This document shows positions 1,321-60,430 of a stretch of DNA of 64,000 nucleotides, in pieces (the stretch's first letter is position 1; the number at the start of each line of letters is the position of its first letter). The DNA lies in NCBI GenBank assembly GCA_011605725.1, contig JAAOZP010000014.1:76141-140140 (forward strand), written 5' to 3'. The notes beneath the pieces are model-generated. The model ran no database searches. It was given only the letters and a program-made list of their open reading frames with translations, and was not told where the DNA came from. The translations under genes were made by a program, and so were the position numbers. Origin of the DNA: Nitrososphaerota archaeon (GTDB lineage: Archaea > Thermoproteota > EX4484-205 > JAAOZP01).

Positions 1321-1395
1321 GCGGCGCTGGTCTAGCCTGGTTATGACACCAGCCTTCCAAGCTGGGAATCCCGGGTTCAAATCCCGGGCGCCGCA
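1321..1395 (+). tRNA. tRNA-Gly(TCC)
   Basis: Cloverleaf with GCGGCGC/GCGCCGC acceptor, CCAGC-CTTCCAA-GCTGG anticodon arm and TTCAAAT T-loop; upstream AAAACTTTTATAACC promoter. Confidence 0.97.
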
Positions 1396-2407: not shown

Positions 2408-2576
2408 AAAAAGTTAATATAGTAGTGGAGCGGTCTCCGCTGAGGAGGTGTATAGTGCACATGGCCAGCAACGCCCAAAGGGGGCGAGACTACCTGCGTT
2501 GCAGAGACAGCGACACCTCTATCGGAGTCTGCTGAAAAACAATATTGTTTTAAACCTGTTTTAGGAGGGTTTCGTA
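2408..2576 (+). promoter_or_regulatory. leu operon promoter and structured 5' leader
   Basis: A-rich BRE plus TTAATATA (2414-2421); SD AGGAGGTG (2443-2450); motif shared with the ilv leader. Confidence 0.7.
2455..2535 (+). CDS. Putative leader peptide (uORF) MHMASNAQRGRDYLRCRDSDTSIGVC
   Basis: Strong SD 4 nt before GTG; aligns without gaps to the ilv uORF; single Leu at codon 14. Confidence 0.6.
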   Translation: MHMASNAQRGRDYLRCRDSDTSIGVC

Positions 2577-7461: not shown

Positions 7462-8994
7462 CTAAGGGCATTTTTCAACCGTGGAGAAGGAGAAGCCCTT
7501 GACAAGCCTGCTTACAGCGTTTTCCAGAAGCATCCTAGCCTCCGTGTCTTTCTGAAGCATCAGGCTAAGCTTTGAGAAACACTCTTTTAAAACGTTCTCC
7601 CTGTCTGCGAGCATCATTTTATCAGCCTCGGGAGAGCCTGCGCCTAAGGATACTCGCTTCGAAGCGACAGCACTCGCGTCAGCCTCTTTCAGTATTTTCA
7701 TCAGTAGACCGCTAACGTCTCTGCCTAACACGTTCAGGGAAACACTTTTTAAATCCTCCTCGTTGAGACTATTCATCTTCCTGCCGGTTTTAACGCTGAG
7801 CTTAACAATCTCCCCCACCAACCTGTGGGCAAGCCTGAATGGAACCCTGGCTTCCTCAACTATTCTTTCAGCAACATCCAAGGCAATAATGTTTGGCTCA
7901 GTTAAAGACCTTATTCTCTCACGGTTCTCCTTAAGATTCTCAAGAACAATTCTAACGATTCTAACTGCTTCCCTGCTTGTTTCAATAGCCTCGATCAACG
8001 GGGGCTTGGTTTCCTGAAGATCTCTAACATAGCCGCTGGGCACTGCCTTGCAAACCATCGAGAGCTGAGCTAGACTTGAGAAAACCCTTCCTGTTCTCGC
8101 ACGGGTCAGCTCAAGTATGCAAGGATTCTTCTTATGTGGCATCGCGCTCGATGGGAAAGCCAGCTCGTCTGGAAGCGTGAAGAAACCGTATTCTGAGGAA
8201 AGCCAGATTATAAGGTCCTCCATAATCCTGCTCAGGTTAAGCATGAGAATGTTGAGGTTTGAAACAACCTCCAGCGCGAAGTCTCTTGACGAAACAGCGT
8301 CGAACGAGTTCTCCACAACACCGTCGAACCCTAGGAGCCTCGTAGTGAGACTCCTGTCTATCTTAAGCGAGGAGCCGACTATAGCAACGCTCCCTAAAGG
8401 ATTCTGGTTAACCCTTTTAAAGGATTCTGAGAGTCGGTTAAAGTCTCTCAGAAACACGTCGAAATACCCTAGGAAATAGTGTGAAAGAGGAGCAACCTGA
8501 GCCTGTTGCAGATGAGTGTAGAACGGGAAAACTACGTCAAGAGTCTCTCCAGCCTTCTTTAGAAGAGTTGCCTCAAGCTTAAGCAGCTCTCCCATAATGC
8601 TTAAGACTTCTCTCCTCGTCTTAAGCCTCACCGCCGTGACAACCTGATCATTCCTGGAGCGAGCCGTGTGAACAAGGCCTCCTACCTCCATCCCAGCCTG
8701 CTTAACTACATAAGACTCTATGAGTTCATGAACATCCTCGTACTTTTCAAGGTCGAGCTGACTCAAACCTTCCTCTCTAAGCCTTTTAAGAGCCTCAAGA
8801 ATCTGTTTAAGCTGCTCCTCAGTAATATAGCCCTGTTTCATAAGCATGAGGTCGTGCGCAACCGTGCATTCAATATCCTCGTTAAATATCCAAGCGTCTT
8901 CCCTAATGCTGGACACGTATCTCGTGGCCTCTGAGGAAACCGGTCCAAGCCTGCTCCTATATATGCCTCCGGAAGCATCCTGCTCCATTGACAA
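7462..8994 (-). CDS. argH: Argininosuccinate lyase
   Basis: EDVH, HTARSRNDQV, YTHLQQAQ, SSAMPHKKNP. Confidence 0.93.
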   Translation of the reverse strand: MSMEQDASGGIYRSRLGPVSSEATRYVSSIREDAWIFNEDIECTVAHDLMLMKQGYITEEQLKQILEALKRLREEGLSQLDLEKYEDVHELIESYVVKQAGMEVGGLVHTARSRNDQVVTAVRLKTRREVLSIMGELLKLEATLLKKAGETLDVVFPFYTHLQQAQVAPLSHYFLGYFDVFLRDFNRLSESFKRVNQNPLGSVAIVGSSLKIDRSLTTRLLGFDGVVENSFDAVSSRDFALEVVSNLNILMLNLSRIMEDLIIWLSSEYGFFTLPDELAFPSSAMPHKKNPCILELTRARTGRVFSSLAQLSMVCKAVPSGYVRDLQETKPPLIEAIETSREAVRIVRIVLENLKENRERIRSLTEPNIIALDVAERIVEEARVPFRLAHRLVGEIVKLSVKTGRKMNSLNEEDLKSVSLNVLGRDVSGLLMKILKEADASAVASKRVSLGAGSPEADKMMLADRENVLKECFSKLSLMLQKDTEARMLLENAVSRLVKGFSFSTVEKCP

Positions 8995-9272
8995 CCCTAA
9001 GCCGGATGAACCTGCAGAAACATGCTAATAAGGGTTACATGAAAAACGGTTTGAAACATTCTGAAGGCTTAAAAGCGATCAGCATTTTACGGGTTTCCCT
9101 AGAGACAAGTGGTGGCGAGCTAAGATTCTACAAGGGTTGAGACGCCTCCGGTAGTCCAGAAGCATGTGAATCACACTCCACGGAAAGCCTTTCCCCCGGT
9201 TTTCTACGCGCGCAAAAAGCAGCGGGCAAAACTTAAAAGGCTCAAAAACAAGTATTTCAAGAGGAACTCGTC

Positions 9273-11421: not shown

Positions 11422-13056
11422 CTAGGTGAAAAACCTGTTTTCCCTCAGCTTAGCTAAAAACCGGCTTTCAAGCCTCTTAGCCGGCGGAACCCATTTCCTC
11501 CTTCTCTCCTCAAGCTCGTCTCTATCGACAAGCAGGTCCAGCCTTCTTTCCGGCACGTCTACAAGTATCTCGTCACCGTCCTCCACGAGCGCTATAGGTC
11601 CCCCCAAGTAGGCCTCTGGGGAAACATGGCCTATGGCAATTCCCTTCGTGCCCCCTGAGAATCTTCCGTCAGTAACCAGCGCAACCCTTTCAACAAGGTT
11701 CCTGCCAACTATTAGCGAGGTCGGCATCAGCATTTCACGCATACCGGGGCCGCCTAGAAGCCCCTCGTAGCGCACGACAACTACAGTGTCCACAGTGAAA
11801 TCCTCTTTCTCAAGCGCTTCAACAGCCTCCTCCTCAGAGTTGAAAACCCTAGCCCTGCCTCTGAACGTTCTAAGCTGAACAGGTGTTCCAGCAAGCTTAA
11901 TCACAGCGCCCTCCGGCGCCAAGGACCCCCATAGCACCGCTATGCCTCCTTCACCTCTATACGGGTTATCCGGAGAACGTATAAGCATGCCCCTTGGATC
12001 TGGAAACTCTTCAACAAGCTCCCGGAGACGCCTACCGGTAACAGTTAAAACATCCAGGTTAAGATATTTTTTAAGAGTCTTCATGAGCGAGGGGACTCCG
12101 CCCGCGTTGTAGAAGTCGATCATGAAGCTCTCGCCGGACGGCCTTATTAGAGCCAGCGTAGGTATCCTTCTGCTCAGCTCGTCGAAGGTCTTTAGAGGAA
12201 GCTCGTACCCAGCCTCCTTGGCTAGAGCGCTCAAGTGGAGAACAGTGTTGGTGGAGCCTCCGAGAGCATTATCAACAATTATAGCGTTAACAATGCTTTC
12301 AGGCTTAACAATATCCTTAAACCTTAAACCCTCCTTCCAGAGTTCCACTATTCGCCTTCCAGACTCGTATGCAAGAGTCTTCTTACCCTCGTCCTCAGCG
12401 TGAGTAGCAGCCATGCCGGGAAGCGATATGCCCATCGCCTCAACCAGGCAAGCCATAGTGTTAGCAGTGAAAAGGCCGGCGCAGCTTCCGGCGCCGGGGC
12501 AAGCAGCCTGTTCAAACTCCCTCAGTTCTTCAAGCGTAATCCTTCCCTCACGGTATTCCCCGAGCGCTTCGAAGACTGAAACCAAGTCAACCCTCCTGCC
12601 TTTGAACAACCCCGGATACATGGGTCCGCCTGTAACGAATATCGACGGAAGATTCAGCCTGGCTGCTGCCAGCAGGTGGCCGGGAACAATCTTGTCGCAT
12701 GAAGATATGAAAACCAGGGCGTCGAACACGTGTGCTGAAACCATTATTTCAACCGAGTCGGCTATGACTTCTCTGCTTGGGAGCGAGAACCTCATTCCAT
12801 CATGGTTCATCGCAATACCGTCGCAGACAGCGATCGTGTTGAAGATGAAAGGCACCCCGCCGCTGTCTCTAACACCCTTGGAAACGTTTTCCGCAAGCAC
12901 GTTGAGGTGAACATGTCCTGGGACAACGTTAGTGAAGGAGTTGACTACACCTATGAAAGGCTTTTCGAAGTCCTGGTTTCTCAAGCCTATGGCGTGAAGC
13001 AGAGACCTGTGCGGAGCCCTGTCCACACCTTTTTTTACAGCGTCGCTCCTCATCAA
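11422..13056 (-). CDS. ilvD: Dihydroxy-acid dehydratase
   Basis: CDGIAM, CDKIVPG, CAGLFTANTM, TDGRFSGGT. Confidence 0.95.
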   Translation of the reverse strand: MMRSDAVKKGVDRAPHRSLLHAIGLRNQDFEKPFIGVVNSFTNVVPGHVHLNVLAENVSKGVRDSGGVPFIFNTIAVCDGIAMNHDGMRFSLPSREVIADSVEIMVSAHVFDALVFISSCDKIVPGHLLAAARLNLPSIFVTGGPMYPGLFKGRRVDLVSVFEALGEYREGRITLEELREFEQAACPGAGSCAGLFTANTMACLVEAMGISLPGMAATHAEDEGKKTLAYESGRRIVELWKEGLRFKDIVKPESIVNAIIVDNALGGSTNTVLHLSALAKEAGYELPLKTFDELSRRIPTLALIRPSGESFMIDFYNAGGVPSLMKTLKKYLNLDVLTVTGRRLRELVEEFPDPRGMLIRSPDNPYRGEGGIAVLWGSLAPEGAVIKLAGTPVQLRTFRGRARVFNSEEEAVEALEKEDFTVDTVVVVRYEGLLGGPGMREMLMPTSLIVGRNLVERVALVTDGRFSGGTKGIAIGHVSPEAYLGGPIALVEDGDEILVDVPERRLDLLVDRDELEERRRKWVPPAKRLESRFLAKLRENRFFT

Positions 13057-13063
13057 GTCTTTT

Positions 13064-14047
13064 TCAACCGTACACCATCGACCTTATTTTCCTTCCAACA
13101 GTCTCTATCAAGTGGTTTCTCTCTCTTTCAACGAGAGTCTTCAGAACAACCTGGTTCGAACTGTTTTCAAGTATCCACTCTCTTGCGAAAACACCTGTCT
13201 GAACATCTTCAAGAAGCTTCCTCATCTTCCTCTTAACATCCTCATCTATAAGATAGGGGCCGCGCGTAAGACCGCCGTACTTAGCAGTATCGCTGACAGC
13301 CTGCCACATGCCGGATAAGCCTTTAGACCAGATCAGGTCGACGATAAGCTTAAGCTCGTTTAAAACTTCGAAGTAAGCCACCTCAGGCTGGTATCCTGCT
13401 TCCACAAGGATTTCGAAGCCGCTTTTAATAAGCGACGAGACTCCGCCGCATAGCACAGCCTGCTCTCCGAAAAGATCTGTCTCAACCTCCTCCTTGAACG
13501 AGGTTTCTATCAAGCCGATCCTGCTTAGCCCCACAGCCTTCCCCAGCTCCCTGACTATTCTTGAAGCATTACCCGTGTAATCCTGGTGGACAGCTATTAA
13601 GCCGGGGACCCCGGTTCCGCGAACATATGCTTCTCTTAAAGCAGGACCAGGCGCCTTGGGAGCCACGAGGACAACGTCGAGCCAGGGAGAAGGAACTATC
13701 TGCCTGTAGTGAATGTTGAAAGCATGCGCGAAAACAAGTGTTGAACCCTTAGAGATGTTCGGCTCAACATGATCCCTGTAGACAGCCGGTTGAGCAGGAT
13801 CAGGAATAAGCATTAGAATAATGCTGCTTTTTCTAACTGCCTCACTTATCTCGTAGACTTCGAAGCCGTCTTCAGAAGCCCTTCTCCAAGACGAGCCTTC
13901 TCTTCTCAAGCCTATTATCGTGTTAACACCGCTGTCTCTAATGTTCTTAGCCTGAGCCTCACCCTGGGAGCCATAGCCTATCACGGCGACAGTCTTATTC
14001 TTAATCAGCTCGATGCTTATTTCATCATCCCTTATTATCCTAGCCAT
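13064..14047 (-). CDS. ilvC: Ketol-acid reductoisomerase
   Basis: IGYGSQG, APKAPG, ETDLFGEQAVLCGG. Confidence 0.95.
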   Translation of the reverse strand: MARIIRDDEISIELIKNKTVAVIGYGSQGEAQAKNIRDSGVNTIIGLRREGSSWRRASEDGFEVYEISEAVRKSSIILMLIPDPAQPAVYRDHVEPNISKGSTLVFAHAFNIHYRQIVPSPWLDVVLVAPKAPGPALREAYVRGTGVPGLIAVHQDYTGNASRIVRELGKAVGLSRIGLIETSFKEEVETDLFGEQAVLCGGVSSLIKSGFEILVEAGYQPEVAYFEVLNELKLIVDLIWSKGLSGMWQAVSDTAKYGGLTRGPYLIDEDVKRKMRKLLEDVQTGVFAREWILENSSNQVVLKTLVERERNHLIETVGRKIRSMVYG

Positions 14048-14091
14048 CCTCAGTCACCCCTACTCCACGGCTACGTTTTCTTTTAAGCTTT

Positions 14092-14580
14092 TTACTTTCT
14101 GAAACGGTTCAAAGTGTGAATCATCACACCGCTCCTCGAGAAGCTTTCAACACGATCTTTAAACTCCTCCTTAAAGTCGTCGACAACCCTAGGGTCGGCG
14201 AGGAGCTCGACGAGAAGCCTGGAGCCGCTCAGCAAGGTTGTTCTAGCCCTATACCTGACCCTGATATAGTCGCTCACACTAGTGTCACAATCCTTCAGCA
14301 CAGCTACGAAAGCCTCCCTTATCACATCGTACTCGAGAGAACCTATCTTAACCTCGAAGACACATGGGTTTTTCTCAAGAACCTTAACTATGTTTTCAAA
14401 TTTCTCCTGAGGCAGGCTGAAGGTTAGAGATATCTCCGAGGTCTTCCCGTTCACCATGCCGACAGTTATCGTGTCAATGTTTATTGCTCTCCTCGCGAAT
14501 ATTGAGGCTATTCTCTCCATCACCCCAGGCATGTTGAGAACCCTGAGCACAACGAACCTCTTATTCTCGTCTGAAGCCAT
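14092..14580 (-). CDS. ilvH: Acetolactate synthase small (ACT) subunit
   Basis: NMPGVMERIASIFARRAINID ACT motif; operon position. Confidence 0.85.
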   Translation of the reverse strand: MASDENKRFVVLRVLNMPGVMERIASIFARRAINIDTITVGMVNGKTSEISLTFSLPQEKFENIVKVLEKNPCVFEVKIGSLEYDVIREAFVAVLKDCDTSVSDYIRVRYRARTTLLSGSRLLVELLADPRVVDDFKEEFKDRVESFSRSGVMIHTLNRFRK

Positions 14581-14588
14581 TTTCCACC

Positions 14589-16262
14589 CTACCTCCTTAC
14601 GATGACTCTGTCAAGCGGGGCAGCCGGGGGAACCATTGGGAAAACATTATCCTCTCTCGCGACAATCACGTCTAACACAGTTGTCTCATCCTGCTTTAAA
14701 GCGGTTTCAAGAGCGTTTTTAAGCTCGCTTATCCTCGTCACTTTAAACCCTTTAGCGCCGAAACCCTCTGAAACCCTAGCTATGTCAGCTCTGCCCTTCA
14801 AATCCACAGCCATATACCTCCTGCCGTAGAAAAGCTCCTGCCACTGTCTAACCATGCCCAGGAAATAATTGTTAAGAACCAAGACTATGATCGGCAGGTT
14901 ATAGTCTACTGAAACCGGAAGCTGGTTACAAGTCATGAAGAAGCTACCGTCTCCAGCTATGTCGAAAACACGGCTCTCCGGGAAGGCTGCTTTAACCCCG
15001 ATCGCAGCCGGAAGCCCGAAGCCCATTGTGCCAAGTCCGCCGGAGGATATGAATTGTCTCGGACGCTTAGCTGTAAAGTGGAGTGAAGCATACATCTGGC
15101 ACTGGCCTACCTCCGTCGTCACAAAGTCTTCAGCCTTAACATAGTCGTTCAGAACCCTTACGGCAGTACTTGGATCAACCGGAACAGCATCGTAATCGTA
15201 AAGGAACTCAGATTCCTTCTTGAGCTGTTTAACTCTTTCACCCCACGTAGCAGCCTTGCCCTTCTTGAAAAGCCTGAGAATCGTTTCGCGAATCCTGATT
15301 AAAACCTGCTTAGCGTCACCGGCGACGCCAAGGTCGGGCTTAAGCAGCTTCCCGATTTCAGACCTATCTATGTCAACATGTATCTTCCTCGCTCCCGGGG
15401 CGAAGCCGCTTAACTTACCAGTAGTCCTGTCGCTAAACCTCATGCCTACTGCAAGAATCAGGTCGCTCTCCTGAACAGCCTTGATCGCGCCTAGCTTCCC
15501 ATGCATTCCAACCATGCCTAGGGACAACGGATGGTCTTCAGGAATGCTTCCCTTGCCCATTAGAGTCGTCGCTACGGGAGCGTTTAGAAGCTCAGCAAGG
15601 GCGATAAGCTCGCTGGACGCGCCTGATATTATTACTCCGCCTCCAGCTATGATCACAGGCCTCTCAGCCTCAACCAGCATCTTTGAGACTGTTAGAATCT
15701 CCTCGTCGGAGGGAGAGGGAGGAGTATAAGAGTAGATGTAGAAATCGTCATCAGGCTCGCCCTCCATCAGCTGAACATCCCTAGGGACGTCGATGTGAAC
15801 AGGCCCAGGTCTTCCGGATAAGGCTATTTTAAAAGCGTTCTCAAGCGCAGAGTTAAGCTCGTTTAAGTCTCTAGGTAGAAAGTTCATCTTCGTCAACCCT
15901 ATCATCATCGAGAAAACATTAGCCTCCTGAAAACCGTCGTAACCTATGAGAGGCGTCGCAACCTGGCCGGCTATGCTTAAAACCGGCGAGGAATCCAAGT
16001 AGGCGTTGGCAATTCCTGTTGCAAGATTAGTGGCGCCAGGGCCGGATGTGGCGACGACAACGCCAATCCTGCCGGTTGCCCTAGCATACCCGTCAGCCAT
16101 GTGGGCAGCACCCTGCTCATGCCTCGCGAGAATGAACTCTATGTCGCCAGCCTTATAAAGCTCGTCTAGAAACGGGAGCACAGCCCCACCGGGTACTCCG
16201 AAGATGGTTTTAACCCCGTTCTCCCTCAGCTTCTCAACTAGTAGTCTAGACCCTGAAACCAT
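14589..16262 (-). CDS. ilvB: Acetolactate synthase large subunit
   Basis: RHEQGAAHMADGYAR, TSGPGATN, GDGSF...NN ThDP motif; ATG at 16262 follows a GAGGTG SD. Confidence 0.95.
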   Translation of the reverse strand: MVSGSRLLVEKLRENGVKTIFGVPGGAVLPFLDELYKAGDIEFILARHEQGAAHMADGYARATGRIGVVVATSGPGATNLATGIANAYLDSSPVLSIAGQVATPLIGYDGFQEANVFSMMIGLTKMNFLPRDLNELNSALENAFKIALSGRPGPVHIDVPRDVQLMEGEPDDDFYIYSYTPPSPSDEEILTVSKMLVEAERPVIIAGGGVIISGASSELIALAELLNAPVATTLMGKGSIPEDHPLSLGMVGMHGKLGAIKAVQESDLILAVGMRFSDRTTGKLSGFAPGARKIHVDIDRSEIGKLLKPDLGVAGDAKQVLIRIRETILRLFKKGKAATWGERVKQLKKESEFLYDYDAVPVDPSTAVRVLNDYVKAEDFVTTEVGQCQMYASLHFTAKRPRQFISSGGLGTMGFGLPAAIGVKAAFPESRVFDIAGDGSFFMTCNQLPVSVDYNLPIIVLVLNNYFLGMVRQWQELFYGRRYMAVDLKGRADIARVSEGFGAKGFKVTRISELKNALETALKQDETTVLDVIVAREDNVFPMVPPAAPLDRVIVRR

Positions 16263-16443
16263 TTGAAACACCTCTTGCAAACGGCTTTTTGAAAACCACT
16301 GTTTTCTCTAGCGGAGGCTGGGTTTGCAGCGGGACTCCTGCAGTTGGTGGACGGTGTCCCGCCCCCTTGGAGCGTGAATATTATGGTACACTCAGCGCAC
16401 CTCCTAAGCAGTGTGCCCATTGAGAGGCCTATATTAATCTTTC
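16263..16443 (-). promoter_or_regulatory. ilv operon promoter and structured 5' leader
   Basis: GAAAGA-TTAATATA (TATA at 16437-16430); motif shared with the leu leader. Confidence 0.7.
16308..16391 (-). CDS. Putative leader peptide (uORF) MYHNIHAPRGRDTVHQLQESRCKPSLR
   Basis: SD AGGAGGTG (16405-16398) 6 nt before GTG; aligns to the leu uORF; single internal Val at codon 14. Confidence 0.6.
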   Translation of the reverse strand: MYHNIHAPRGRDTVHQLQESRCKPSLR

Positions 16444-16456
16444 CCCCCTAAGCTGG

Positions 16457-17158
16457 CTAAATACCGTCGATACGAATATTCCTGGTTTCTACCGAGCAGG
16501 CATACAAGGCTAAGACGTAGAGCGGCAGGGAAACAAGCAGAACAACCAGTATCAATATACTGCGAAATCCAACAGTAAACTCTTTAAGAAAGAGCTGTTG
16601 ACCCTGCGGCTGGCTCGCCTCCTGGGTTATTAAGAAAGGAGATATCGTTACGCTGAAGATTATCACGCAGAGAAAAATGGCTGTAGTGTTCGCGAGCTTT
16701 CTTAAAACCTCCTTAGAAAGACCATATCCGACGGCTAGTGAGAAAAGCCAGTAACCATGCGTTGCCAATAGGAAATGAATCAAACCGTTAAAATCATTGA
16801 AGATAAGGGGAGATCGTAACACAGGTATTAAAACTATAAGTGTTTTAAGCTCTAGCAGGATGAGGGAAACAAGAGAATGCGCTAAAAACGGTATGTACTC
16901 AGACATGGCTGTGTAAATCTTTAGCTTAAAACCCTTGTTTAAAAATTCCATGCGCCAAATCTCAAGCTCAGAAAGGGTTGAGCAGAGAATTATAACTAAC
17001 CATACTGCTGGGAGTAAAGCGCGCACGCTAACAATAGGTTCGAAGGAACCAGGGCATAGTAGTGTATAGGCGGCTAATGCTACTGGGGCAAACTCCAGGG
17101 TCATGAAGAGCGGTGAAGTGAAGAAGAGCTTCAGCTCCCGGTCAACAAGGTTAGCCAA
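16457..17158 (-). CDS. Membrane protein, ABC-2 permease-like
   Basis: About 6 hydrophobic segments; directly downstream of an ABC ATPase-like gene. Confidence 0.55.
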   Translation of the reverse strand: MANLVDRELKLFFTSPLFMTLEFAPVALAAYTLLCPGSFEPIVSVRALLPAVWLVIILCSTLSELEIWRMEFLNKGFKLKIYTAMSEYIPFLAHSLVSLILLELKTLIVLIPVLRSPLIFNDFNGLIHFLLATHGYWLFSLAVGYGLSKEVLRKLANTTAIFLCVIIFSVTISPFLITQEASQPQGQQLFLKEFTVGFRSILILVVLLVSLPLYVLALYACSVETRNIRIDGI

Positions 17159-18449: not shown

Positions 18450-18524
18450 GCGGCGCTGGTCTAACCTGGTTATGACACCAGCCCCCCAAGCTGGGAACTC
18501 CGGGTTCAAATCCCGGGCGCCGCA
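18450..18524 (+). tRNA. tRNA-Gly(CCC), atypical C33 and A15-U48
   Basis: Near-identical to tRNA-Gly(TCC); anticodon loop CCCCCAA; same promoter motif AAAACTTTTATTAACC. Confidence 0.92.
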
Positions 18525-51809: not shown

Positions 51810-53071
51810 TCTTGATGAGTAACATCTTCCTATCTATAAGAGGAAGAATCCTGGTGAATGTTGAAGCATTAAACATGACTGAAAGCGTTGGAAACTACGT
51901 TAAGCATAGAAGAGTACCAGTAATAATGCCTGGAACATACACTACTTATTTCGTTCCTGCAGTAAGCGGGGAATCAATAGCTCACGGATACCAAGCAGTA
52001 CTGGCTGAAGAAGCAGAAAAGAATGGAATACCAGTGTGCAATTTATGCAAAAAGGGGTATTTTCTAAAAAGTACAAACGATAAGGTATTTGAAAGCTCTT
52101 TTGGCATTAAACCACCGGATAGTGAGGCAGATTTTGAAAGGACAGTAATAAGCAAATGTTTAGTAGAGGATGTAGGTGGTTTTCTCTATGCGCCAAGAGC
52201 TGGAGGAAAAAATGTGAAAAGAACATCTAATTTCTTCGTTGGATATATGATACCAACAAAAGAATCGCTTGAAGGAACAGTAATAGAACCTCAACTTCAC
52301 TCTCGATATGCTCTAGGAACCCCATTTGTCGAAAGAGAACAAATGGGCCAAATGTTATATTACGTAGAACTTTCTTCAGCAGTATACGCTTTCAGCTTTG
52401 ACTTGGATTCTAAATTTATAGGGAGAACTACGTTTGTTTTAGAAAAAGCTGGAGAACCAGTAACATTTCGACAAGGAGATAGTAGAGAAAAAAGAATAAG
52501 TGTTTCGATTAATGCCGTGTCAAACTTTCTACGGGAAACGCTGTTCGGAGCGAAGAGAACAAGGTTCTTACCAGTTGTCGATTGGGAGTCTATGATAATG
52601 GCATTAAGCGACGATGTTTGGACAACACCAAGCCCGTTCACAACCAATTATACAGAAAACTCGTTAAGAAAGCTAGAGAAAACTAATGAGAATACAAAGC
52701 TTTTCGTATACATTAATCCTACCCTTCTTGAAGATACAAGTGTATACGTGAAGAAGAAAACTGAGGAGCTGCTTAACAATTTCTATGAAGCTTTGGAAGA
52801 CTTTAAGAAAAGGCTTGAAGAAAAAGGCGATGTGAACATAGTGAACTGGCAGGAGTTTAAGAAGAAAAAGCTTGAAGAATTTCTAGATAGAAAGGTTAAT
52901 GAGCTCGTTGAATCCGGTGATTTGAAATATGTTTCTAAAGTCCAGAAGAAGTATGCAGACTTTATAGAAACGGCTAAGGGGAAGGAAAATAAAGTTAAGA
53001 TCTATTACAATTTTGAAGAATGTGTAAAAGAAGCTGTGGAAGAAGCAAAAAGTAGAGTCAGTAAAGAATAA
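51806..53071 (+). CDS. cas7: Type I-A Cas7 (Csa2) with extra C-terminal helical segment
   Basis: NVEALN..ESVGNY.KHR, VPAVSGES..HGYQ, EDVGGF, KRTS. Confidence 0.92.
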   Translation: MILMSNIFLSIRGRILVNVEALNMTESVGNYVKHRRVPVIMPGTYTTYFVPAVSGESIAHGYQAVLAEEAEKNGIPVCNLCKKGYFLKSTNDKVFESSFGIKPPDSEADFERTVISKCLVEDVGGFLYAPRAGGKNVKRTSNFFVGYMIPTKESLEGTVIEPQLHSRYALGTPFVEREQMGQMLYYVELSSAVYAFSFDLDSKFIGRTTFVLEKAGEPVTFRQGDSREKRISVSINAVSNFLRETLFGAKRTRFLPVVDWESMIMALSDDVWTTPSPFTTNYTENSLRKLEKTNENTKLFVYINPTLLEDTSVYVKKKTEELLNNFYEALEDFKKRLEEKGDVNIVNWQEFKKKKLEEFLDRKVNELVESGDLKYVSKVQKKYADFIETAKGKENKVKIYYNFEECVKEAVEEAKSRVSKE

Positions 53072-53074
53072 ACT

Positions 53075-53905
53075 ATGTTCGGCATCATAGTAGATACAGA
53101 ATTTGCTTGGGGCTTTCAAGCTAGAGTAGTAGGATTATCTAAAACAACACCCTCATTCTACTATCCACCTCCAACAACATTCCTAGGAGCCATAGCGGAA
53201 GCAATAGCGAGAAAGTCATGTTTGGGAGAGGATAAAGGAAAAAAGATTGCAATAATGTTGGGAGAAAAAGTCTTAGCATTGGGCATTAGACCAATAAACT
53301 GTATTCCAATAAAATATTCCGATATAAATCGAATAATCTCAATCAGAATATTAGGAGAACTTGGACTTGTTCCAGATCCTAGAGATTTCACAAAGTCTTT
53401 CGATTCCCCTGCTAGAGGAAAAACTTTGATGATGAGTTACGATGACAATCCCCCGGTATTAAGGTGGCTCTTAGTATTAGATGATAATAAGTTAAGTTTT
53501 AACGGAAAGACATTTTCACTTTTAGATAAAAAATATTTTTGGGCAATACATAGGTTAGGCTCAAAGGAAAGCAGAGTTTCCGTTTTAAATGTAGGTGTTG
53601 TTGAAAACATAGAAGAAAATTTTGGAATGATAGTAACAAAATATAGCTTCCCCATGGTTGATGGAGTTACTCCTGAGGAACAGCTCCAAGTCAGATGGAT
53701 GTATGAAATTTATACTGATCCGCGTAAGTTAGGATATGATAAGACAGAAAATCCTCTTGTCAGTTATATGATGGGAGAAAACCTTGTTACTTACAGTATA
53801 CCGATAAAAGAGACAGGAGACCCTGAATTCAGAATAAAAGTAAGCAAACCAGCAGTCGCGTATAAGATTAGAGACGAATACGTAGTAGGATGGGAGAAAC
53901 AATGA
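53075..53905 (+). CDS. cas5: Type I-A Cas5
   Basis: WGFQAR, PPPTTFLGA, LGSKES. Confidence 0.92.
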   Translation: MFGIIVDTEFAWGFQARVVGLSKTTPSFYYPPPTTFLGAIAEAIARKSCLGEDKGKKIAIMLGEKVLALGIRPINCIPIKYSDINRIISIRILGELGLVPDPRDFTKSFDSPARGKTLMMSYDDNPPVLRWLLVLDDNKLSFNGKTFSLLDKKYFWAIHRLGSKESRVSVLNVGVVENIEENFGMIVTKYSFPMVDGVTPEEQLQVRWMYEIYTDPRKLGYDKTENPLVSYMMGENLVTYSIPIKETGDPEFRIKVSKPAVAYKIRDEYVVGWEKQ

Positions 53906-55083
53906 CGCTCTTGGAGTTGAAAATTCCTATAGACTCAACCTTTTTGAGTCATACAATCTATGAAGGAATCTTATTTTCCATTTCCTCCTCGAACACTAAT
54001 ACTTTTTCAGCCAAAGAAGTACATTTTTCCAAAGACTTTTTAAAAAAGGCATATAAATCTTTGGAAGATGAGAGAATTGATAAAATAACGATTATTTTTA
54101 CAGGAAACGATAAAATAGAAACTCTTTTGGAAACACTAAAAATAAGTGAAAAACCTAAGAAAACTTTTAGAGGACTTATAAAAGTTATTAAAAACAACGA
54201 TACAAGGATCCCTGAACCTGATAATATTAAATTGTTATTAAAATTAGAAAAAAAGAACATGCTTATTGACTCTGATAGGAAAGTTTGTTTAGCGGCCCCA
54301 CAGCTTTTCAAAGTAGACAGATATACTGGGATATCTTCTTTTGAGACTAAATTAATATCGGAACAACTTGGACTTAGAATGTCTCCTGAAACTATACTTC
54401 TAAGTCTTTTAGGTACATATTCTTCCCATGTCACTACTGTAAGAGGGCAGGAAAACGTTTATCATTACTTTCTCTTTTTCGCCCCAGAGGAGGTGGTGTC
54501 TCTTCTCAATAATGGTGATCTGGGACAACTTAACGTTTATCTTACTATGAAGGAAGAAATAATGGAAGGACTTGTTGATATTCTTAGCAGTTCAATAGTC
54601 AACGAGTTTCTTCTGTTAGAAATAATGCTAAACACGAAATTCCTAGAAAGTATGAGGAAAAAGGGTTTAGATAAAATAGGGCTTATTCTGTTTAAGGTTT
54701 CTCCTGAAGGCCAAACTTATAAGATATATGAAATCATTCCGATAACTCTCTACAAGGAACCGGCTTTTTATGATATTCTCGCCAAAAAGACTAGAAACGC
54801 TGATAAAATTTGTGAAATTCTATCAAGTGTGCTCTCCTCCGGTGAAACGATAGCCAACGCTTTAAAGTCTTTTAATACGAGGAATAAGTTTGATGAGGCA
54901 GACGAAATATTGAAAGGAGTTTTAAGTCTCTACAGGTTTGTAGTGTTAGCGGATGTTCAGGGACTATATGATTTCCTCCATTACTTAAAGAACGCTTGCA
55001 AAATACTTGAAGCTAAGAATCCAAATAATCCGAGAATAAAATCCTATCTTCGAATCCAAAGAGAACTCGCATACTTTATATGA
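53890..55083 (+). CDS. cas8a: Type I-A large subunit Cas8a (Csa4/CsaX-like)
   Basis: Size and position between cas5 and cas3; PQLFK.DRY and EGQTYK motifs. Confidence 0.7.
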   Translation: MGETMTLLELKIPIDSTFLSHTIYEGILFSISSSNTNTFSAKEVHFSKDFLKKAYKSLEDERIDKITIIFTGNDKIETLLETLKISEKPKKTFRGLIKVIKNNDTRIPEPDNIKLLLKLEKKNMLIDSDRKVCLAAPQLFKVDRYTGISSFETKLISEQLGLRMSPETILLSLLGTYSSHVTTVRGQENVYHYFLFFAPEEVVSLLNNGDLGQLNVYLTMKEEIMEGLVDILSSSIVNEFLLLEIMLNTKFLESMRKKGLDKIGLILFKVSPEGQTYKIYEIIPITLYKEPAFYDILAKKTRNADKICEILSSVLSSGETIANALKSFNTRNKFDEADEILKGVLSLYRFVVLADVQGLYDFLHYLKNACKILEAKNPNNPRIKSYLRIQRELAYFI

Positions 55084-56796
55084 GTGGCAATGATTTGTTT
55101 AGAACCATATTTTAACGCTGTACTAAATTCTCTTACTGAAAAGGAAGAGAGACCCTTTCTTAGGCACGTTATAGAATATGCTGAGAAATATCCTTTTATC
55201 GTTGTGGAGGCTCCTACCGGTTATGGTAAATCTGTAATATCGCAAACAGTCGCTTTATATTCCTTAGCCAATGGATTGAAATCGATAATAGCTTTCCCCC
55301 TTAGAGTTTTACTTGAAGACCAATTATCTAAATTTAGAAAACTACTTTCAAAGCTTTCAATAAGAGGAGACCTTATCGGTGCCAGATATATGGGTTATGC
55401 TGGGTCAAAGTATTTAATTAAACCCATTACGTTAACTACGGTAGATACTCTTTCAATGACTCTTTTCGGTATACCTCCAGAAGATATAGAAAAAGCTTTC
55501 AAGTATTGGGATGGTACTTCTACCAGAAGCTTAGGGCATTATCTCTTCTCCCGAACATCCGTTCTTCTTTCTGATGTCGTGCTGGATGAAGTTCATCTTT
55601 TAGCCGATTCAACTAAATCACTTAATTTCTTAATAGCCCTTATGAGGATAATTGCATCCCATGGGCAAAGATTGATCTTCATGTCTGCAACAATTCCAAA
55701 ACAGCTTGAAAAAGTTATAGAAGAAAACACGAGTGATCTTAACGTCAGGTTCGTAAAGTTTTCTGAAAATCCGGATGAACATTTTCTTAGTCAACGAAAG
55801 AACAAAAAGTATGACATTACTTTAGAAAAAATGAAAGAAGAAAAACTCGATAAGATTTTAGAATGGCTCAGAGATAATATTAAAGAATTTCGGAAAGCTA
55901 TTGTTATATTCAATACTGTTGAAGATGCAATAAGGTTTTATAACAAGTGTAAAAATGAATTGGATTTCCCGAAAGACAGAATTATCCTTCTTCATTCCAG
56001 ATTTACTAAAAACGATAGAGAAAATAAAATAAAGCTTTTAGAAAAGGTTACCAAAAACAAGCTTGCAACCGATGAATATGTAATAATATCTACTCAAGTG
56101 ATAGAGGCTGGCATAGATATCTCTTCAAACCTTTTCATAACTGAGATTGCTCCTGCTAATTCACTTATTCAAAGGCTTGGTAGGTTTCTACGCTACAAAG
56201 AAGAGAGTGGACGTGTTCTAATATGGTATGAACCGCTCAGCGAGAATGAAGAGTATTATAAGGGAGTTTATAAAGCAGATTTCATTAGAAAAACTGTCGA
56301 CTTTCTTGAAAGTAAAGGGTGTATGAACATCCATATTCCAAGTGAATATGAACAGCTTTTAAATGAAGTCTATGACGGAGATTCATTCGTCGTGAAACAA
56401 AAAGAGGTAAGAGATTTAACCCTAATACCATACATTTTAGAAACCCCGGAAAAGGCTATAGAGAAATTTGTAGAATTAGAAGGAAGCTTCATAAGAGAGG
56501 ATCTTATTGTCCCGTCGCTTCCTTCAAGTATATGGAGAGAAGACTTGACATTAGAAAAAATAGAAGACTTCATAATCCCCATTAACTTTTCAATGATTAA
56601 AAAGATTTGTCCTAGAGAAGAGATTGTTATTTCAGAGAAAGATCAAAAAATGGTAGTAGAAAAAAGACAGATAAATTTTTCAATAAACAATAGTATAAAG
56701 ACTCTTAGACACGTAATGTCTTCCGATTTCGTAGCTTTTATTGTCGAAGGAGAATATTCTGATGAACTGGGTTTGGAGGTAAGACGGAGTGAGTAA
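55084..56796 (+). CDS. cas3: Cas3' helicase
   Basis: APTGYGKS, DEVH, MSAT, HSRF, TQVIEAG.D, QRLGR. Confidence 0.95.
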   Translation: MAMICLEPYFNAVLNSLTEKEERPFLRHVIEYAEKYPFIVVEAPTGYGKSVISQTVALYSLANGLKSIIAFPLRVLLEDQLSKFRKLLSKLSIRGDLIGARYMGYAGSKYLIKPITLTTVDTLSMTLFGIPPEDIEKAFKYWDGTSTRSLGHYLFSRTSVLLSDVVLDEVHLLADSTKSLNFLIALMRIIASHGQRLIFMSATIPKQLEKVIEENTSDLNVRFVKFSENPDEHFLSQRKNKKYDITLEKMKEEKLDKILEWLRDNIKEFRKAIVIFNTVEDAIRFYNKCKNELDFPKDRIILLHSRFTKNDRENKIKLLEKVTKNKLATDEYVIISTQVIEAGIDISSNLFITEIAPANSLIQRLGRFLRYKEESGRVLIWYEPLSENEEYYKGVYKADFIRKTVDFLESKGCMNIHIPSEYEQLLNEVYDGDSFVVKQKEVRDLTLIPYILETPEKAIEKFVELEGSFIREDLIVPSLPSSIWREDLTLEKIEDFIIPINFSMIKKICPREEIVISEKDQKMVVEKRQINFSINNSIKTLRHVMSSDFVAFIVEGEYSDELGLEVRRSE

Positions 56797-57601
56797 TAAG
56801 AAAATATTAAGCTATTGTGAAAGAAGGGGTCTTGACATAGTGTCAGAATATCTTGTAGACCATATTGTAACATGCTCAGAATTTTTAGGAGAGTTGAAAT
56901 CGTCAAAAATAGGAAGATTTTGCACATCCTTACATGAAGATTTTAGTGAAGCCATCAGACTATCCGTGTTCTTTCATGACATTGGGAAAGTCTTTTATCA
57001 ATATGGGAGAGGTAAAAGGTATATCGCCTTCACTGGTCATGAAATACTTTCGTTTTTTATGTTTAAAGAATTCGCTAAGAAGCTTAAAGAAAACCCTGAA
57101 ATAGATATAACTGCAGACACTGCTTTATTCTCTGTATTTTTCCATCACCATGCGATGGGTATTAAGCGGAGAGTCAATAATATTAAAAACCTTGATCCAC
57201 TAAAAAAGATAAGTTATAATGTCTTCCAAGATTTATTAAGCGACTTATCTCTAACGGTAGATCGATGTATTTCATCAGATGAATTCAAAATTCTTTCATC
57301 CGTAATTAACGAAATATCCGAAAAAATCTTTAATGGAAGTATCAACATTAACTATATAATAAGAGATTCCGAAGGAGGAATTTGCCAATTATGGGAAAAA
57401 ATTACAAGCAACGATGAGAATAGTATAAGGTTTAAGAAACTAGCCTACTCGGTGCTTTCCGTCCTCGTATGTGTAGATAATTTGTCCGCGCAGAAATTAA
57501 GAAAAAGTACGACTACAGGTTTCACAAAGATTCTCGAGGAATTCTACAATGACTATTTAAAAACGTGGGACATTAGCTTACCTACAAGCTTATTAACCTA
57601 A
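56789..57601 (+). CDS. cas3'': Cas3'' HD nuclease
   Basis: LVDH, FHDIGK, HE, HHH, D. Confidence 0.92.
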   Translation: MSNKKILSYCERRGLDIVSEYLVDHIVTCSEFLGELKSSKIGRFCTSLHEDFSEAIRLSVFFHDIGKVFYQYGRGKRYIAFTGHEILSFFMFKEFAKKLKENPEIDITADTALFSVFFHHHAMGIKRRVNNIKNLDPLKKISYNVFQDLLSDLSLTVDRCISSDEFKILSSVINEISEKIFNGSININYIIRDSEGGICQLWEKITSNDENSIRFKKLAYSVLSVLVCVDNLSAQKLRKSTTTGFTKILEEFYNDYLKTWDISLPTSLLT

Positions 57602-57621
57602 CGCCTAAGATTCTTTGAATC

Positions 57622-58515
57622 ATGAATTTAATTACTCTAACGCTCAAATTCTTCTTTTATAAAGGTTTTACGTTCAACTATTTCTCAGGCTATTACGTAA
57701 GGGGCTTCTTCTATTCGACTTTGAGAAATTCTAATCCCGAGCTTGCTGAGAAGATTCATAATTCCAAGGTGCTTGCCCCGTTTTCCTCCCGAACCATATT
57801 TTTAGAACAGCCTAATGGTAGACGGATAGTTTTTAACAAGGTTAGTAATCCTTCTCCAGCCTTTTTCGAGTACTCCATTTTCAACGAGGAAGTTTCAAGA
57901 AGTTTCCTTGAGCACGTTATTCAAGAAGGTTCTGTCACTCTGCTCAACGAGAAGTTTCCTTTAAGCCACATAGATATGCAAGAGATTGACTGGAACAGCT
58001 TTATAGAGTCTTCTAAGCCAGTTAAGAAATTCGACATAGTTTTTCTTACTCCTACCTACTTTAGGCTCCCACCAGTATTGCTTGACCGCTACGAGGCTAG
58101 GCTTGAGCTTGCAGGCGTTAAGGAAAAGGCTTCATACCGGTATTATCCTATTCCAGATCCCTCTCTCTTGATCAGGAGTATAGCGAAAATATGGAGAGCC
58201 TTCTCACCCATAAAGCTTAATCTCACAAGTCTAATATCTTGGGTTGGTGCTGGCGGTATCGCGGTATCAGGTTATCCCAGCGGAATAAGAACATACAGGC
58301 TTTACGAGCATGAGAAGGCTGATAAATGGGTCGTAGGATTCGTTGGCAGGGTTGGCTTCTCTGTTCCAAATGATCTCTTCAACGAGAGCCTTGCTAAGAA
58401 TCTAGATGCTCTACTCAGGTTTTCACGATTCTCTAACGTGGGCGGCGGCAGGACTGCAGGCCTCGGGATGGTTGAATACATACCTTTAGAATACGCTGAG
58501 GAGTCAAAAGGTTAG
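57622..58515 (+). CDS. cas6: Cas6 endoribonuclease
   Basis: FLTPT and C-terminal VGGGRTAGLG Gly-rich loop. Confidence 0.92.
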   Translation: MNLITLTLKFFFYKGFTFNYFSGYYVRGFFYSTLRNSNPELAEKIHNSKVLAPFSSRTIFLEQPNGRRIVFNKVSNPSPAFFEYSIFNEEVSRSFLEHVIQEGSVTLLNEKFPLSHIDMQEIDWNSFIESSKPVKKFDIVFLTPTYFRLPPVLLDRYEARLELAGVKEKASYRYYPIPDPSLLIRSIAKIWRAFSPIKLNLTSLISWVGAGGIAVSGYPSGIRTYRLYEHEKADKWVVGFVGRVGFSVPNDLFNESLAKNLDALLRFSRFSNVGGGRTAGLGMVEYIPLEYAEESKG

Positions 58516-59079
58516 ACAATAGTTTTTAAAACCGCAGTTCATACACCTGCTCTTAATAACCTTAACCTCAGGCTCTAACTCGTTATCTATGATTTCGCTT
58601 ATTTTCTTTATGATGCTCTTAGCCTCTTTCTTAAGGTCTTCACTTATCGATAAGACACATATGTTCTTTGACCTCAAGTAGTATACTGCTCCCCTTTTAA
58701 CAACAGTGTTAAAATTCTCTTCTATCAAAAGCGAATACGTAGCCATCTGTAGTGCATGATCCCTTTTTACGCTTTGAGAAGCCTCTGCCCACTTTATTTC
58801 AGCCGGCACGTATTCGTTAAACTTCGTTACAATAATATAGTCGATCTTACCCCTCATCTTCAATCTCTGGCTTTCCATTTCGACATCTTCCAAAACTCTA
58901 CTGGCTTTTAGAGAAGCTATTAAAGGCGCGATAATTGATTTGTCATGTTTCTCTCTTCCGAATTCCATATAGTCTGTAGTTCTCTCTTCAAGATGTAGAA
59001 CTCTAGATATGTAGATGATCTTTGGACAGTATACGAACCTCTTAACGTCCGTAGGTGTTAGAAAGTCTTCTTCCTCCAA
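58504..59079 (-). CDS. cas4: Cas4
   Basis: YCP, GKID, EIK, Q...Y, C..C.F...C. Confidence 0.92.
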   Translation of the reverse strand: MEEEDFLTPTDVKRFVYCPKIIYISRVLHLEERTTDYMEFGREKHDKSIIAPLIASLKASRVLEDVEMESQRLKMRGKIDYIIVTKFNEYVPAEIKWAEASQSVKRDHALQMATYSLLIEENFNTVVKRGAVYYLRSKNICVLSISEDLKKEAKSIIKKISEIIDNELEPEVKVIKSRCMNCGFKNYCLTF

Positions 59080-59080
59080 T

Positions 59081-59365
59081 TTAAGTTACTAACTCCTCCC
59101 CCTTATCGTAATCTATGTTTACCCCTATTATCTCCCTCTGGTTAAAGCTTGCCGGAGTCAAAGGATAAACCTGAATATTGACAGGTCCCTCCTTCGAAAG
59201 CCTCTTTAAGCCAGCTATAACTTCAACCCTTCTAGAATGCGACAGTGAGCCTGCAAAAGCACTCTTCTGAATCCTCTTAAGGCCCATGCCCTTAAGGAAA
59301 CTCGCTACTTTCTCCCTTAACTCATCTGAAGAAATATCGTAAATAACCAATGTTATTATCTCCAA
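59081..59365 (-). CDS. cas2: Cas2
   Basis: LVIYDIS, RIQKSAF. Confidence 0.93.
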   Translation of the reverse strand: MEIITLVIYDISSDELREKVASFLKGMGLKRIQKSAFAGSLSHSRRVEVIAGLKRLSKEGPVNIQVYPLTPASFNQREIIGVNIDYDKGEELVT

Positions 59366-59494
59366 CTTTAGGCTTGACTTTAGGTAGAGGAAAAATGTTT
59401 TTAAGTTTTATTTATTTGGCTTCAGAACGTTGAGGTTTAAACATATTCTGCAAATAAATATTTAAGCCTCCCCTTAACTTATAGGCTTAGAATA

Positions 59495-60430
59495 ATGGGG
59501 TTATTCCTGACAATAGATGATGCTGCAAAAATTTTCCAAAGGATTCAAATGTCAAAAATCGACGTTAGCGAAGAATTAAGAGGCTGGAAGTATTCGGACT
59601 ATCCAGTAAGGCCTCCGTCAAACTCGAAAATATCTGTAGGAGACCTAAGCCTAGAATTCTGTCAAACAGGAAGACTGTTCTTCCTAAGGTATGTTAAAAA
59701 AGCTAAGGAAGCAGAGAAACCGTTGTTGGCAAGAGGCAGGTATATTCACAGTATTTTCAATACTGCAATAACAACTGCGAAAAGAATCATATTGGGCGGG
59801 ACTGTTAAAGACAGCTCGTCATTTCTAATAAGTTTCCTAGATGAAGGCACAAAGATTAAACCGGCCCTTATTAAGGAATTCGGCCTACTTTCAAAATGGG
59901 AAGGTGAAGAAAAGCTTGAACGGATTTTTAACAAGATTTGGAGCATAGCTGCCAGCGCCTATTCCCACCAGCTTGATGAAACAGTCACAAGGTCTCCCTA
60001 CCTTTCTCTAGACGGTATTGTTTCAAACGTAGTTCCAATGGTGACAGAGTTCCCATTGGACGGTACTTACCTAGGCTTTCAGAAAAGCATTAGGGTTGAC
60101 GCATTACTTTTACCATTCCTAATAGTCGAGTTGAAAACAAGAGAGGTTAAGCAAGAGCATAAAATTGGCTTGACTGCTTACGCAATGGTTTTCGAATCCA
60201 TTTTCAACATACCGGTTGACTACGCTCTTATTTTAAACCTGAAGCTTGATAAAGAAGCCGAAGACATAAAGGTTTATGAAGAATTGGTTCCAATAACCGA
60301 CTCGCTAAGAACGATGATGATAGAAAGAAGAGATTCTGCATTAAGAATAATTGATGAAAACGTGGATCCTGGAAAACCAGATTACTGTAGTCGCGAATGC
60401 CCTTATTACGAAGTTTGCAGCAAGCTTTAG
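59495..60430 (+). CDS. csa1: Csa1 (type I-A Cas4-like protein)
   Basis: SEELRGW, C.TGR, RVDA, ELK, C...CPY...C. Confidence 0.9.
   Translation: MGLFLTIDDAAKIFQRIQMSKIDVSEELRGWKYSDYPVRPPSNSKISVGDLSLEFCQTGRLFFLRYVKKAKEAEKPLLARGRYIHSIFNTAITTAKRIILGGTVKDSSSFLISFLDEGTKIKPALIKEFGLLSKWEGEEKLERIFNKIWSIAASAYSHQLDETVTRSPYLSLDGIVSNVVPMVTEFPLDGTYLGFQKSIRVDALLLPFLIVELKTREVKQEHKIGLTAYAMVFESIFNIPVDYALILNLKLDKEAEDIKVYEELVPITDSLRTMMIERRDSALRIIDENVDPGKPDYCSRECPYYEVCSKL

Follow-up and report, generated by a model that had tools for sequence, protein, structure and literature searches.

The window, the stretch of DNA analysed here, comprises 64,000 nucleotides (nt) from a Nitrososphaerota archaeon (GenBank assembly GCA_011605725.1, contig JAAOZP010000014.1, positions 76,141 to 140,140 of the forward strand), and its subject of interest is a short leader on the minus strand that precedes an operon feeding valine, leucine and isoleucine and that we read as a candidate sensor of amino-acid supply. 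The operon (11422-16262, minus strand) consists of ilvB (14589-16262), ilvN (14092-14580), ilvC (13064-14047) and ilvD (11422-13056), and a scan with NCBIfam identifies their products as the large and small subunits of acetolactate synthase, ketol-acid reductoisomerase and dihydroxy-acid dehydratase; ilvN is the gene that a first-pass annotation of this DNA had called ilvH. The leader fills a 194-nt intergenic spacer between the ilvB start codon (ATG, 16262) and the end, at 16457, of an open reading frame (ORF) of 233 codons lying directly upstream (16457-17158, minus strand), for which no NCBIfam match was found. Read along the minus strand, the spacer holds in order a TATA box, a ribosome-binding site (RBS), an upstream open reading frame (uORF) of 27 codons that begins with GTG, and the RBS of ilvB itself.

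The promoter (16430-16448) is a purine-rich stretch resembling a B recognition element followed by the archaeal TATA box TTAATATA at 16437-16430, and the geometry of the promoter predicts a transcript start about 22-25 nt 3' of the TATA box, just before AGGAGG. The RBS of the uORF, AGGAGGTG (16398-16405), is complementary to the 16S ribosomal RNA (rRNA) tail GGAUCACCUCCU. The uORF (16308-16391) runs from GTG at 16391 to TAG at 16310-16308 and would encode MYHNIHAPRGRDTVHQLQESRCKPSLR, and a gap of 45 nt separates its stop from the ATG of ilvB. Codons 8-11 contain a G-rich run, AAGGGGGCG (16360-16368), read as R-G-R, which looks like an RBS placed inside the frame. Codon 14, GTC for valine (16350-16352), begins 9 nt past the final G of this run and is called the test codon below. 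A second branched-chain codon, CTG for leucine, stands at codon 17 (16341-16343) within a CAACTG that is fixed across the genus, and at the end of the uORF the element CCTCC (16313-16317) is a partial copy of the 16S tail, that is, an anti-RBS. The +1 frame, entered at the test codon's second base, is free of stops (16238-16351) across the RBS of ilvB (GAGGTG, 16269-16274, 6 nt 5' of the ATG) and its start codon, ending only at a TAG (16240-16238) that sits 22 nt inside ilvB.

A sister leader (2408-2576, plus strand) precedes leuA-leuC-leuD, again assigned with NCBIfam. Its TATA box lies at 2414-2421, AGGAGGTG at 2444-2451, the uORF at 2455-2535 and AAGGGGGCG at 2478-2486, and its test codon is CTG for leucine (2494-2496). 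The window has exactly two occurrences of a 20-nt core motif, one at 2471-2490 on the plus strand and one at 16356-16375 on the minus strand, and none of 100 shuffled versions of the window contained any match. Codon 17 of the ilv leader, CTG, also shares the four letters CTGC with the test codon of the leu leader. The first-pass annotation had noted that the two cores match, which the count and the shuffles bear out, and had placed the TATA box, AGGAGGTG, the uORF, the 45-nt gap and the valine codon on the minus strand at coordinates that are all correct.

The source genome (2.2 Mb in 20 contigs), scanned whole with loose motifs, contains two true leader copies only, those before ilvB and leuA. 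Each of the 16 further species searched within the genus has the element, mostly as two copies per genome about 13.7 kb apart, and true copies always precede leuA or ilvB, the proteins downstream beginning ATGGTTTGGAGAGG and ATGGTTTCAGG, respectively. This supports the earlier argument that two copies in front of linked operons are unlikely to be a coincidence. The motif is neither a generic dispersed repeat nor found mainly before unrelated genes; the few other matches lie within coding sequence. Candidates for a third copy or a wider regulon were rejected: extra matches in two congeners fall inside a coding region, and those in two other families of the order (genomes G019 and G020, one each) are unrelated sequence and come without a TATA box, a uORF or an ilvB or leuA context. 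Of the claim that this is a regulon-wide element, what stands is a small element shared by linked operons, the "regulon" being two operons only.

The comparisons that follow use 28 leaders from the genus (16 before ilvB and 12 before leuA), or 29 with the leader of G017, a genome from a second family within the order. A recognisable leader precedes ilvB in G017, where the product of ilvB is 58% identical, and none was found there before leuA. A third family (f3) has a fused ilvC-ilvD-leuA-ilvB operon without the leader, and from the fourth the IlvB query used retrieved no ilvB. A species-wide scan, covering one genome each for 185,579 species with the ilvB-type core as query, matched 15 archaeal metagenome-assembled genomes, all with a TATA box and ilvB. 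Five of these are labelled Brockarchaeota and the rest Thermoproteota, Nitrososphaerota, Crenarchaeota, "uncultured archaeon" or Bathyarchaeota; one of the matching records is "Bathyarchaeota ex4484_205" from NJEE01. The same scan gave 13 bacterial matches with neither TATA box nor ilvB, a number close to the chance expectation. A scan of metagenomes added 16 further loci of the archaeal kind, new variants among them.

Comparison of these leaders shows that the uORF is conserved together with its signals. The TATA box has the same sequence and a constant distance to the first RBS in all 28 genus leaders, and in all 28 the frame encoding R-G-R-D is open from a start codon behind AGGAGGTG, which in one of them reads GGGAGGTG; with G017 included, the frame and an in-frame start are retained in 29 of 29. 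In the ilvB leaders of the genus the uORF always starts with GTG-TAC, 24 nt 5' of the arginine codon. Seven leuA leaders have relocated the start to an ATG 18 nt 5' of the arginine codon, still in frame. The uORF of G017, about 110 nt 5' of ilvB, offers three ATGs, spaced 6 nt apart, and two GTGs in frame, beginning 26 nt 3' of the TATA box; as it has no AGGAGGTG and starts at the expected 5' end of the transcript, it is probably leaderless. Free variation is seen at codons 3-6 and beyond codon 17, and the length ranges from 20 to 27 codons, so that the peptide as a whole is not the conserved object. We regard it as probable that the uORF is a translated sensor frame.

Two side observations concern initiation. 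In the seven leuA leaders with the relocated ATG (alignment A3), the 14-nt spacer between AGGAGGTG and ATG can form a small hairpin of the GUGUGU/ACACAC type, which would shorten the distance from RBS to start. The same sensor would, moreover, have two initiation modes, RBS-led in the genus and leaderless in G017.

The second conserved feature is the G-run inside the frame. AAGGGGGCG is unchanged in 28 of the 29 leaders, and its sole variant, AAGGAGGCG, is the canonical core of an RBS. The organism's own 16S rRNA ends in GGAUCACCUCCUA, and AGGGGGCGR pairs at eight of nine positions with UCACCUCCU of that tail; this pairing and the canonical variant lead us to read AAGGGGGCG as an in-frame RBS mimic. 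Its spacing is fixed in all 29 leaders, at 6 nt to codon 13, which would occupy the peptidyl (P) site, and 9 nt to the test codon, which would be entering the aminoacyl (A) site. The true starts in these leaders lie mostly 8 nt past GGAGG, so the spacing of the mimic is only mildly compressed. The mimic also contains a rare arginine codon, CGG (5% of arginine codons; CGA, 3%). Internal initiation from the G-run was considered and rejected, no start codon lying at a suitable distance. Each genus leader further carries a piece of the 16S tail downstream: CCTCC in the window's ilv leader, CACCTC in leuA leaders and, in another subgroup of ilvB leaders, TCACCTCCT, a 9-nt copy of the tail. This piece can pair with the RBS of the uORF or with that of the main gene, and no compensatory changes were seen for it in the ilvB leaders.

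The third feature, again brought out by comparison, is the match between test codon and operon. Codon 14 is GTC (valine) in 16 of 16 ilvB leaders of the genus, in G017 and in the distinct metagenome variants, and CTG (leucine) in 12 of 12 leuA leaders, which makes 29 of 29 genome leaders in which codon and operon agree. Its neighbours vary: codon 13 has two forms in ilvB leaders (ACC, CCC) and four in leuA leaders (TAC, AAC, CAC, AAT), and codon 15 has three forms in each leader type within the genus, G017 adding a fourth for ilvB. What is fixed is the distance from the last G of AAGGGGGCG. The proposal that specificity is set by one codon is therefore supported for this two-operon element, with the caveat that the ilv leader has a second invariant codon for leucine. 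That codon, 17, is CTG throughout the genus and ATT (isoleucine) in G017, which fits an operon feeding valine, leucine and isoleucine. Of the two further branched-chain codons pointed out earlier, Leu17 (CTG, 16343-16341) is thus invariant in the genus, and Ile5, which occurs in one subgroup only, does not belong to the element.

The fourth feature is the open +1 frame. In frame 0 the stop falls 35-57 nt short of the main ATG in the genus and about 60 nt short of it in G017, whereas the +1 frame taken from the test codon ends between 6 nt before and 34 nt after the main ATG in all 29 leaders, and likewise in every metagenome variant. Between the test codon and the main ATG the 29 leaders contain 58 stops in frame 0, 33 in frame +2 and one in frame +1, the last lying 6 nt before the ATG. 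For the most part this stretch cannot be aligned across the leu and ilv types, or across the genus and G017, and within each type it differs by many insertions and deletions. By a crude count of substitutions, at least 184 events have occurred in it, from which about eight +1 stops would be expected; none is found in the interior, and the Poisson chance of zero is about 3 in 10,000. The +2 frame, with equal mutational opportunity, has many stops, and most leuA leaders meet one early. No start codon of the +1 frame is conserved, and in leuA leaders this frame is already closed 14-38 nt 5' of the test codon. Ribosomes could therefore reach it only out of frame 0, past the G-run and ahead of the stop of the uORF; for want of a start, it was rejected as an independent ORF. 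A shift to -1, or a slip on the G-run, was rejected because in the majority of leuA leaders the -1 frame soon runs into a stop. Some of the +1 frames end at or very near the start of the enzyme gene: as ATGA in G017, as TAATG in one leuA leader and as TGA-AAA-ATG, with a 3-nt gap, in one ilvB lineage.

Comparison of the leaders shows that the uORF is conserved, that the test codon agrees with the operon, that the frame contains the mimic and that the +1 frame is open; from this we infer translation of the uORF, a ribosome pause, a shift and a way of switching expression on. Transcription would begin about 23 nt past the TATA box, and a ribosome would load at AGGAGGTG and translate the short uORF. 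The ribosome's own 16S tail would grip AAGGGGGCG as the test codon enters, 9 nt further on, this codon being GTC in the ilv leader, where a leucine CTG follows, and CTG in the leu leader. With charged transfer RNA (tRNA) plentiful, the ribosome would terminate in frame 0, 35-57 nt (about 60 nt in G017) short of the enzyme gene and too far from it for a restart, and the RBS of the enzyme gene would remain partly masked by the nearby copy of the 16S tail. With charged tRNA scarce, the waiting ribosome would slip one base forward, continue in the open +1 frame across the masked stretch and the start codon, and terminate at or just past the latter; translation of ilvB (or leuA) would thereby be turned on, whether through restart or through unfolding. 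Restart after termination is nearly lost at a distance of about 20 nt in Haloferax and E. coli (PMC10666635), which makes restart from the frame-0 stop unlikely. We give the full model, in which a +1 frameshift at a hungry codon, set by an RBS mimic, delivers ribosomes to the start of the enzyme gene, a probability of roughly 40%, and it should be taken as tentative.

Several points weigh against the frameshift. A single open +1 frame proves nothing, since in single shuffled leaders it is open in 11-40% of cases; the +2 frame is also open in several ilvB leaders, and kinship among the species means that the counts overstate their independence. Most leaders have their +1 stop 14-34 nt inside the enzyme gene. 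The test codons are not rare, GTC and CTG making up 18% and 19% of their codon families in the genome, and an explanation by codon rarity was rejected on these figures. ARAGORN listed only 21 tRNAs, an inventory too short to draw on. No slippery P-site codon of the CUU_U kind is common to the leaders, codon 13 being ACC, CCC, TAC, AAC, CAC or AAT; among its contexts only CCC_G is of a known shift-prone type. The spacing from mimic to P site is 6 nt, as against 3 nt in the bacterial gene prfB. Archaea also carry Mbf1, a suppressor of such +1 shifts. In favour of a shift there is a precedent from yeast, where stalled ribosomes shift to +1 when Mbf1 is absent (PMC6301793).

The best placed of the other explanations, which we regard as somewhat less likely, is a sensor that works by stalling only: the ribosome pauses at the test codon and keeps its frame, and the stall raises expression by shielding the messenger RNA (mRNA) from 5'-to-3' decay, by keeping the polymerase coupled or by refolding the leader. 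Stalled ribosomes on erm leaders do protect mRNA from 5'-to-3' decay in Bacillus. The same conserved uORF, codon match and mimic apply here, a mimic at start-like spacing could merely lengthen the dwell at the test codon, and as no slippery site is required, finding none is consistent with a stall. This explanation, however, leaves unaccounted for a stop-free +1 frame that ends at the main start, and its refolding branch fared poorly in modelling. In constrained partition-function folding at 37 and 65 °C, with the bases under a stalled or terminating ribosome forced to be unpaired, a ribosome placed at the test codon or at the uORF stop caused no consistent change in the predicted openness of the main start region, so that a simple stall-and-refold switch finds no support in this thermodynamic modelling. 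Terminators fared no better. T-runs are a termination signal in archaea, and they are missing from one subgroup of ilvB leaders; RNAalifold found no covarying alternative helices that would form antiterminator and terminator hairpins with a U-run. A terminator/antiterminator switch of the bacterial type is thus not supported.

An improbable alternative is that the leader is a structured cis-regulatory RNA, such as a riboswitch, a T-box-like tRNA sensor or a protein-binding leader, in which the "codon" is read as RNA and the uORF is incidental. Several blocks are indeed conserved by nucleotide, third codon positions included (CCGTCCNCCAACTGC), the test codon never varies even synonymously, and three RBS-like blocks with one 16S-tail-like block would allow alternative pairings. 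Searches and folding nevertheless speak against it. Rfam gave no match in the window at the gathering threshold and none of relevance at E<=10 in 16200-16480, with T-box and Leu_leader included, and single-sequence folding of the two leaders is unremarkable, with z-scores of -0.5 and -2.05. RNAalifold returned different consensus folds for ilvB and leuA leaders, the 16S-like piece pairing with the main RBS in the former and with the first RBS in the latter, with no compensatory pairs in ilvB leaders and 3 of 23 pairs in leuA leaders, in short helices that are absent from the ilvB fold. A long-range helix spotted by eye, GCGGGAC with GTCCCGC, was discarded because other subgroups do not retain it. 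Frame, start and RBS, moreover, survive the relocation of the start codon described above.

Still less credence is given to an arrest peptide, for which TnaC and the fungal arginine attenuator peptide would be parallels: nascent A-x-R-G-R-D would stall the ribosome from the exit tunnel, perhaps on free amino acid. Codons 7, 11 and 12 differ among the leaders mostly by synonymous changes (GCT/GCC, CGA/CGG, GAC/GAT), as if alanine, arginine and aspartate mattered, but G017 has R-G-R-Y without the alanine, one species has R-R-R-D and another R-G-R-E. Pairing with the 16S tail accounts for the same bases, and arrest alone does not need an operon-matched codon two places downstream. Very improbable, finally, is a duplicated promoter and 5' untranslated region that serves plain expression, with uORF and codon match coincidental: in its favour, only two operons carry the element, but a 33-nt block is unchanged among species whose IlvB is only about 81% identical, the leader persists in another family at 58% IlvB identity, and the codon match has no exception among the 29 genome leaders.

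Other features of the window and its relatives deserve brief mention. An ATG frame of 28 codons (9079-9165, minus strand), upstream of an ORF of 510 codons (7462-8994; a putative argH), begins M-L-L-D-Y-R-R-R with three consecutive arginine codons (CGG AGG CGT) and has no G-run; it may be a third amino-acid leader, differently built. In G020, from the third family, a 22-codon uORF, MNAFKFRVLTRSTVYEYIGEKR (L091:2758-2826, minus strand), follows a GC-rich hairpin and T-run that stand behind cimA, and its TGA overlaps the start of ilvC as ATGA; judged by this layout, it could be a directly coupled leader of another design. Positions 52001-60000 of the window have a G+C content of 0.35-0.38, against about 0.47-0.51 elsewhere in it, and may be foreign or mobile DNA. 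Genes for tRNA-Gly(UCC) (1321-1395, plus strand) and tRNA-Gly(CCC) (18450-18524, plus strand) are found about 1.1 kb and about 2 kb upstream of the leu and the ilv leader, respectively, most likely by coincidence.

If true, the frameshift model would, as far as literature searches tell, be the first description in archaea both of leader control mediated by the ribosome and of a +1 frameshift with a regulatory role: no archaeal case turned up in searches on leader peptides, attenuation, stalling on uORFs and frameshifting at hungry codons. Neither uORFs nor attenuation come up in a 2021 review of recoding in archaea (PMC8211752), and a 2021 paper gives the -1 frameshift of fucA1 as the only one unequivocally determined in archaea (PMC8037382). 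In such a system a single test codon, rather than a codon run with a terminator switch, would couple tRNA charging to expression. The element is small and sharply bounded and comes in two versions that differ at the presumed specificity codon, which makes it directly testable, and it offers a handle on gene regulation in an uncultured hot-spring lineage (Brockarchaeota).

The sensing of amino-acid supply by ribosomes on leader peptides is textbook bacterial biology. The branched-chain attenuators of bacteria (ivbL-ilvBN, ilvL-ilvGMEDA and leuL of E. coli; Leu_leader in Rfam) resemble the present element in having a short frame in the 5' leader with codons of the pathway and in sensing charged tRNA through the speed of the ribosome, as we propose here for a frame that keeps its own start signal in 28 of 28 genus leaders. 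They differ in using runs of codons, where one (leu) or two (ilv) conserved codons are found here, and in their terminator and antiterminator hairpins with a U-run, which are not conserved here and have no Rfam counterpart; the archaeal promoter, the internal RBS mimic at fixed distance and a +1 frame open to the main start are found here only. In T-box riboswitches, too, one leader codon corresponds to the operon's amino acid, and it is at this codon that paralogous leaders differ. The present element has neither the fold nor the sequence of a T-box; it spans about 140 nt and lies inside a predicted translated frame, and to our knowledge T-boxes are bacterial.

Closer to home is the coupling of termination and reinitiation in archaea (PMC6728339, PMC10666635). 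The +1 ends ATGA of G017 and TAATG of one leuA leader are coupling overlaps, and the 3-nt gap in one ilvB lineage is a very short gap that still couples. Most of the +1 stops, by contrast, lie 14-34 nt inside the gene, the upstream "gene" would be reachable only by frameshift, and the frame-0 stop is 35-57 nt short in the genus and about 60 nt short in G017.

For the shift itself the nearest parallel is the +1 frameshift of prfB, in which an RBS mimic and a slow A-site codon promote the shift (PMC10798248; see also PMC5009743). Common to both are a mimic of the AGGGGG type just 5' of a slow A-site codon, a short zero frame that suffices with the +1 frame open beyond, and a frameshift that is (in the archaeal leader, would be) sensor and effector at once. 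In the present leaders the mimic stands 6 nt from the P-site codon instead of 3 nt, no slippery CUUU is present, a sense codon takes the place of UGA as the slow codon, the host is archaeal, and the shifted ribosome would make no functional protein, only reaching the start of the next gene. Frameshifting as a form of leader control has been considered in bacteria. The pheL frameshift of E. coli, once discussed in this light, was deemed incidental, while in the leader ORF of ermC, under induction by ketolides, frameshifted ribosomes bypass the stop, unfold a masked start and permit initiation of the main gene (PMC5009743). The trigger there is an antibiotic and the host bacterial, whereas here it would be amino-acid supply in an archaeon, but in both a change of frame within a leader ORF would carry ribosomes into the spacer and open the start of the gene beyond.

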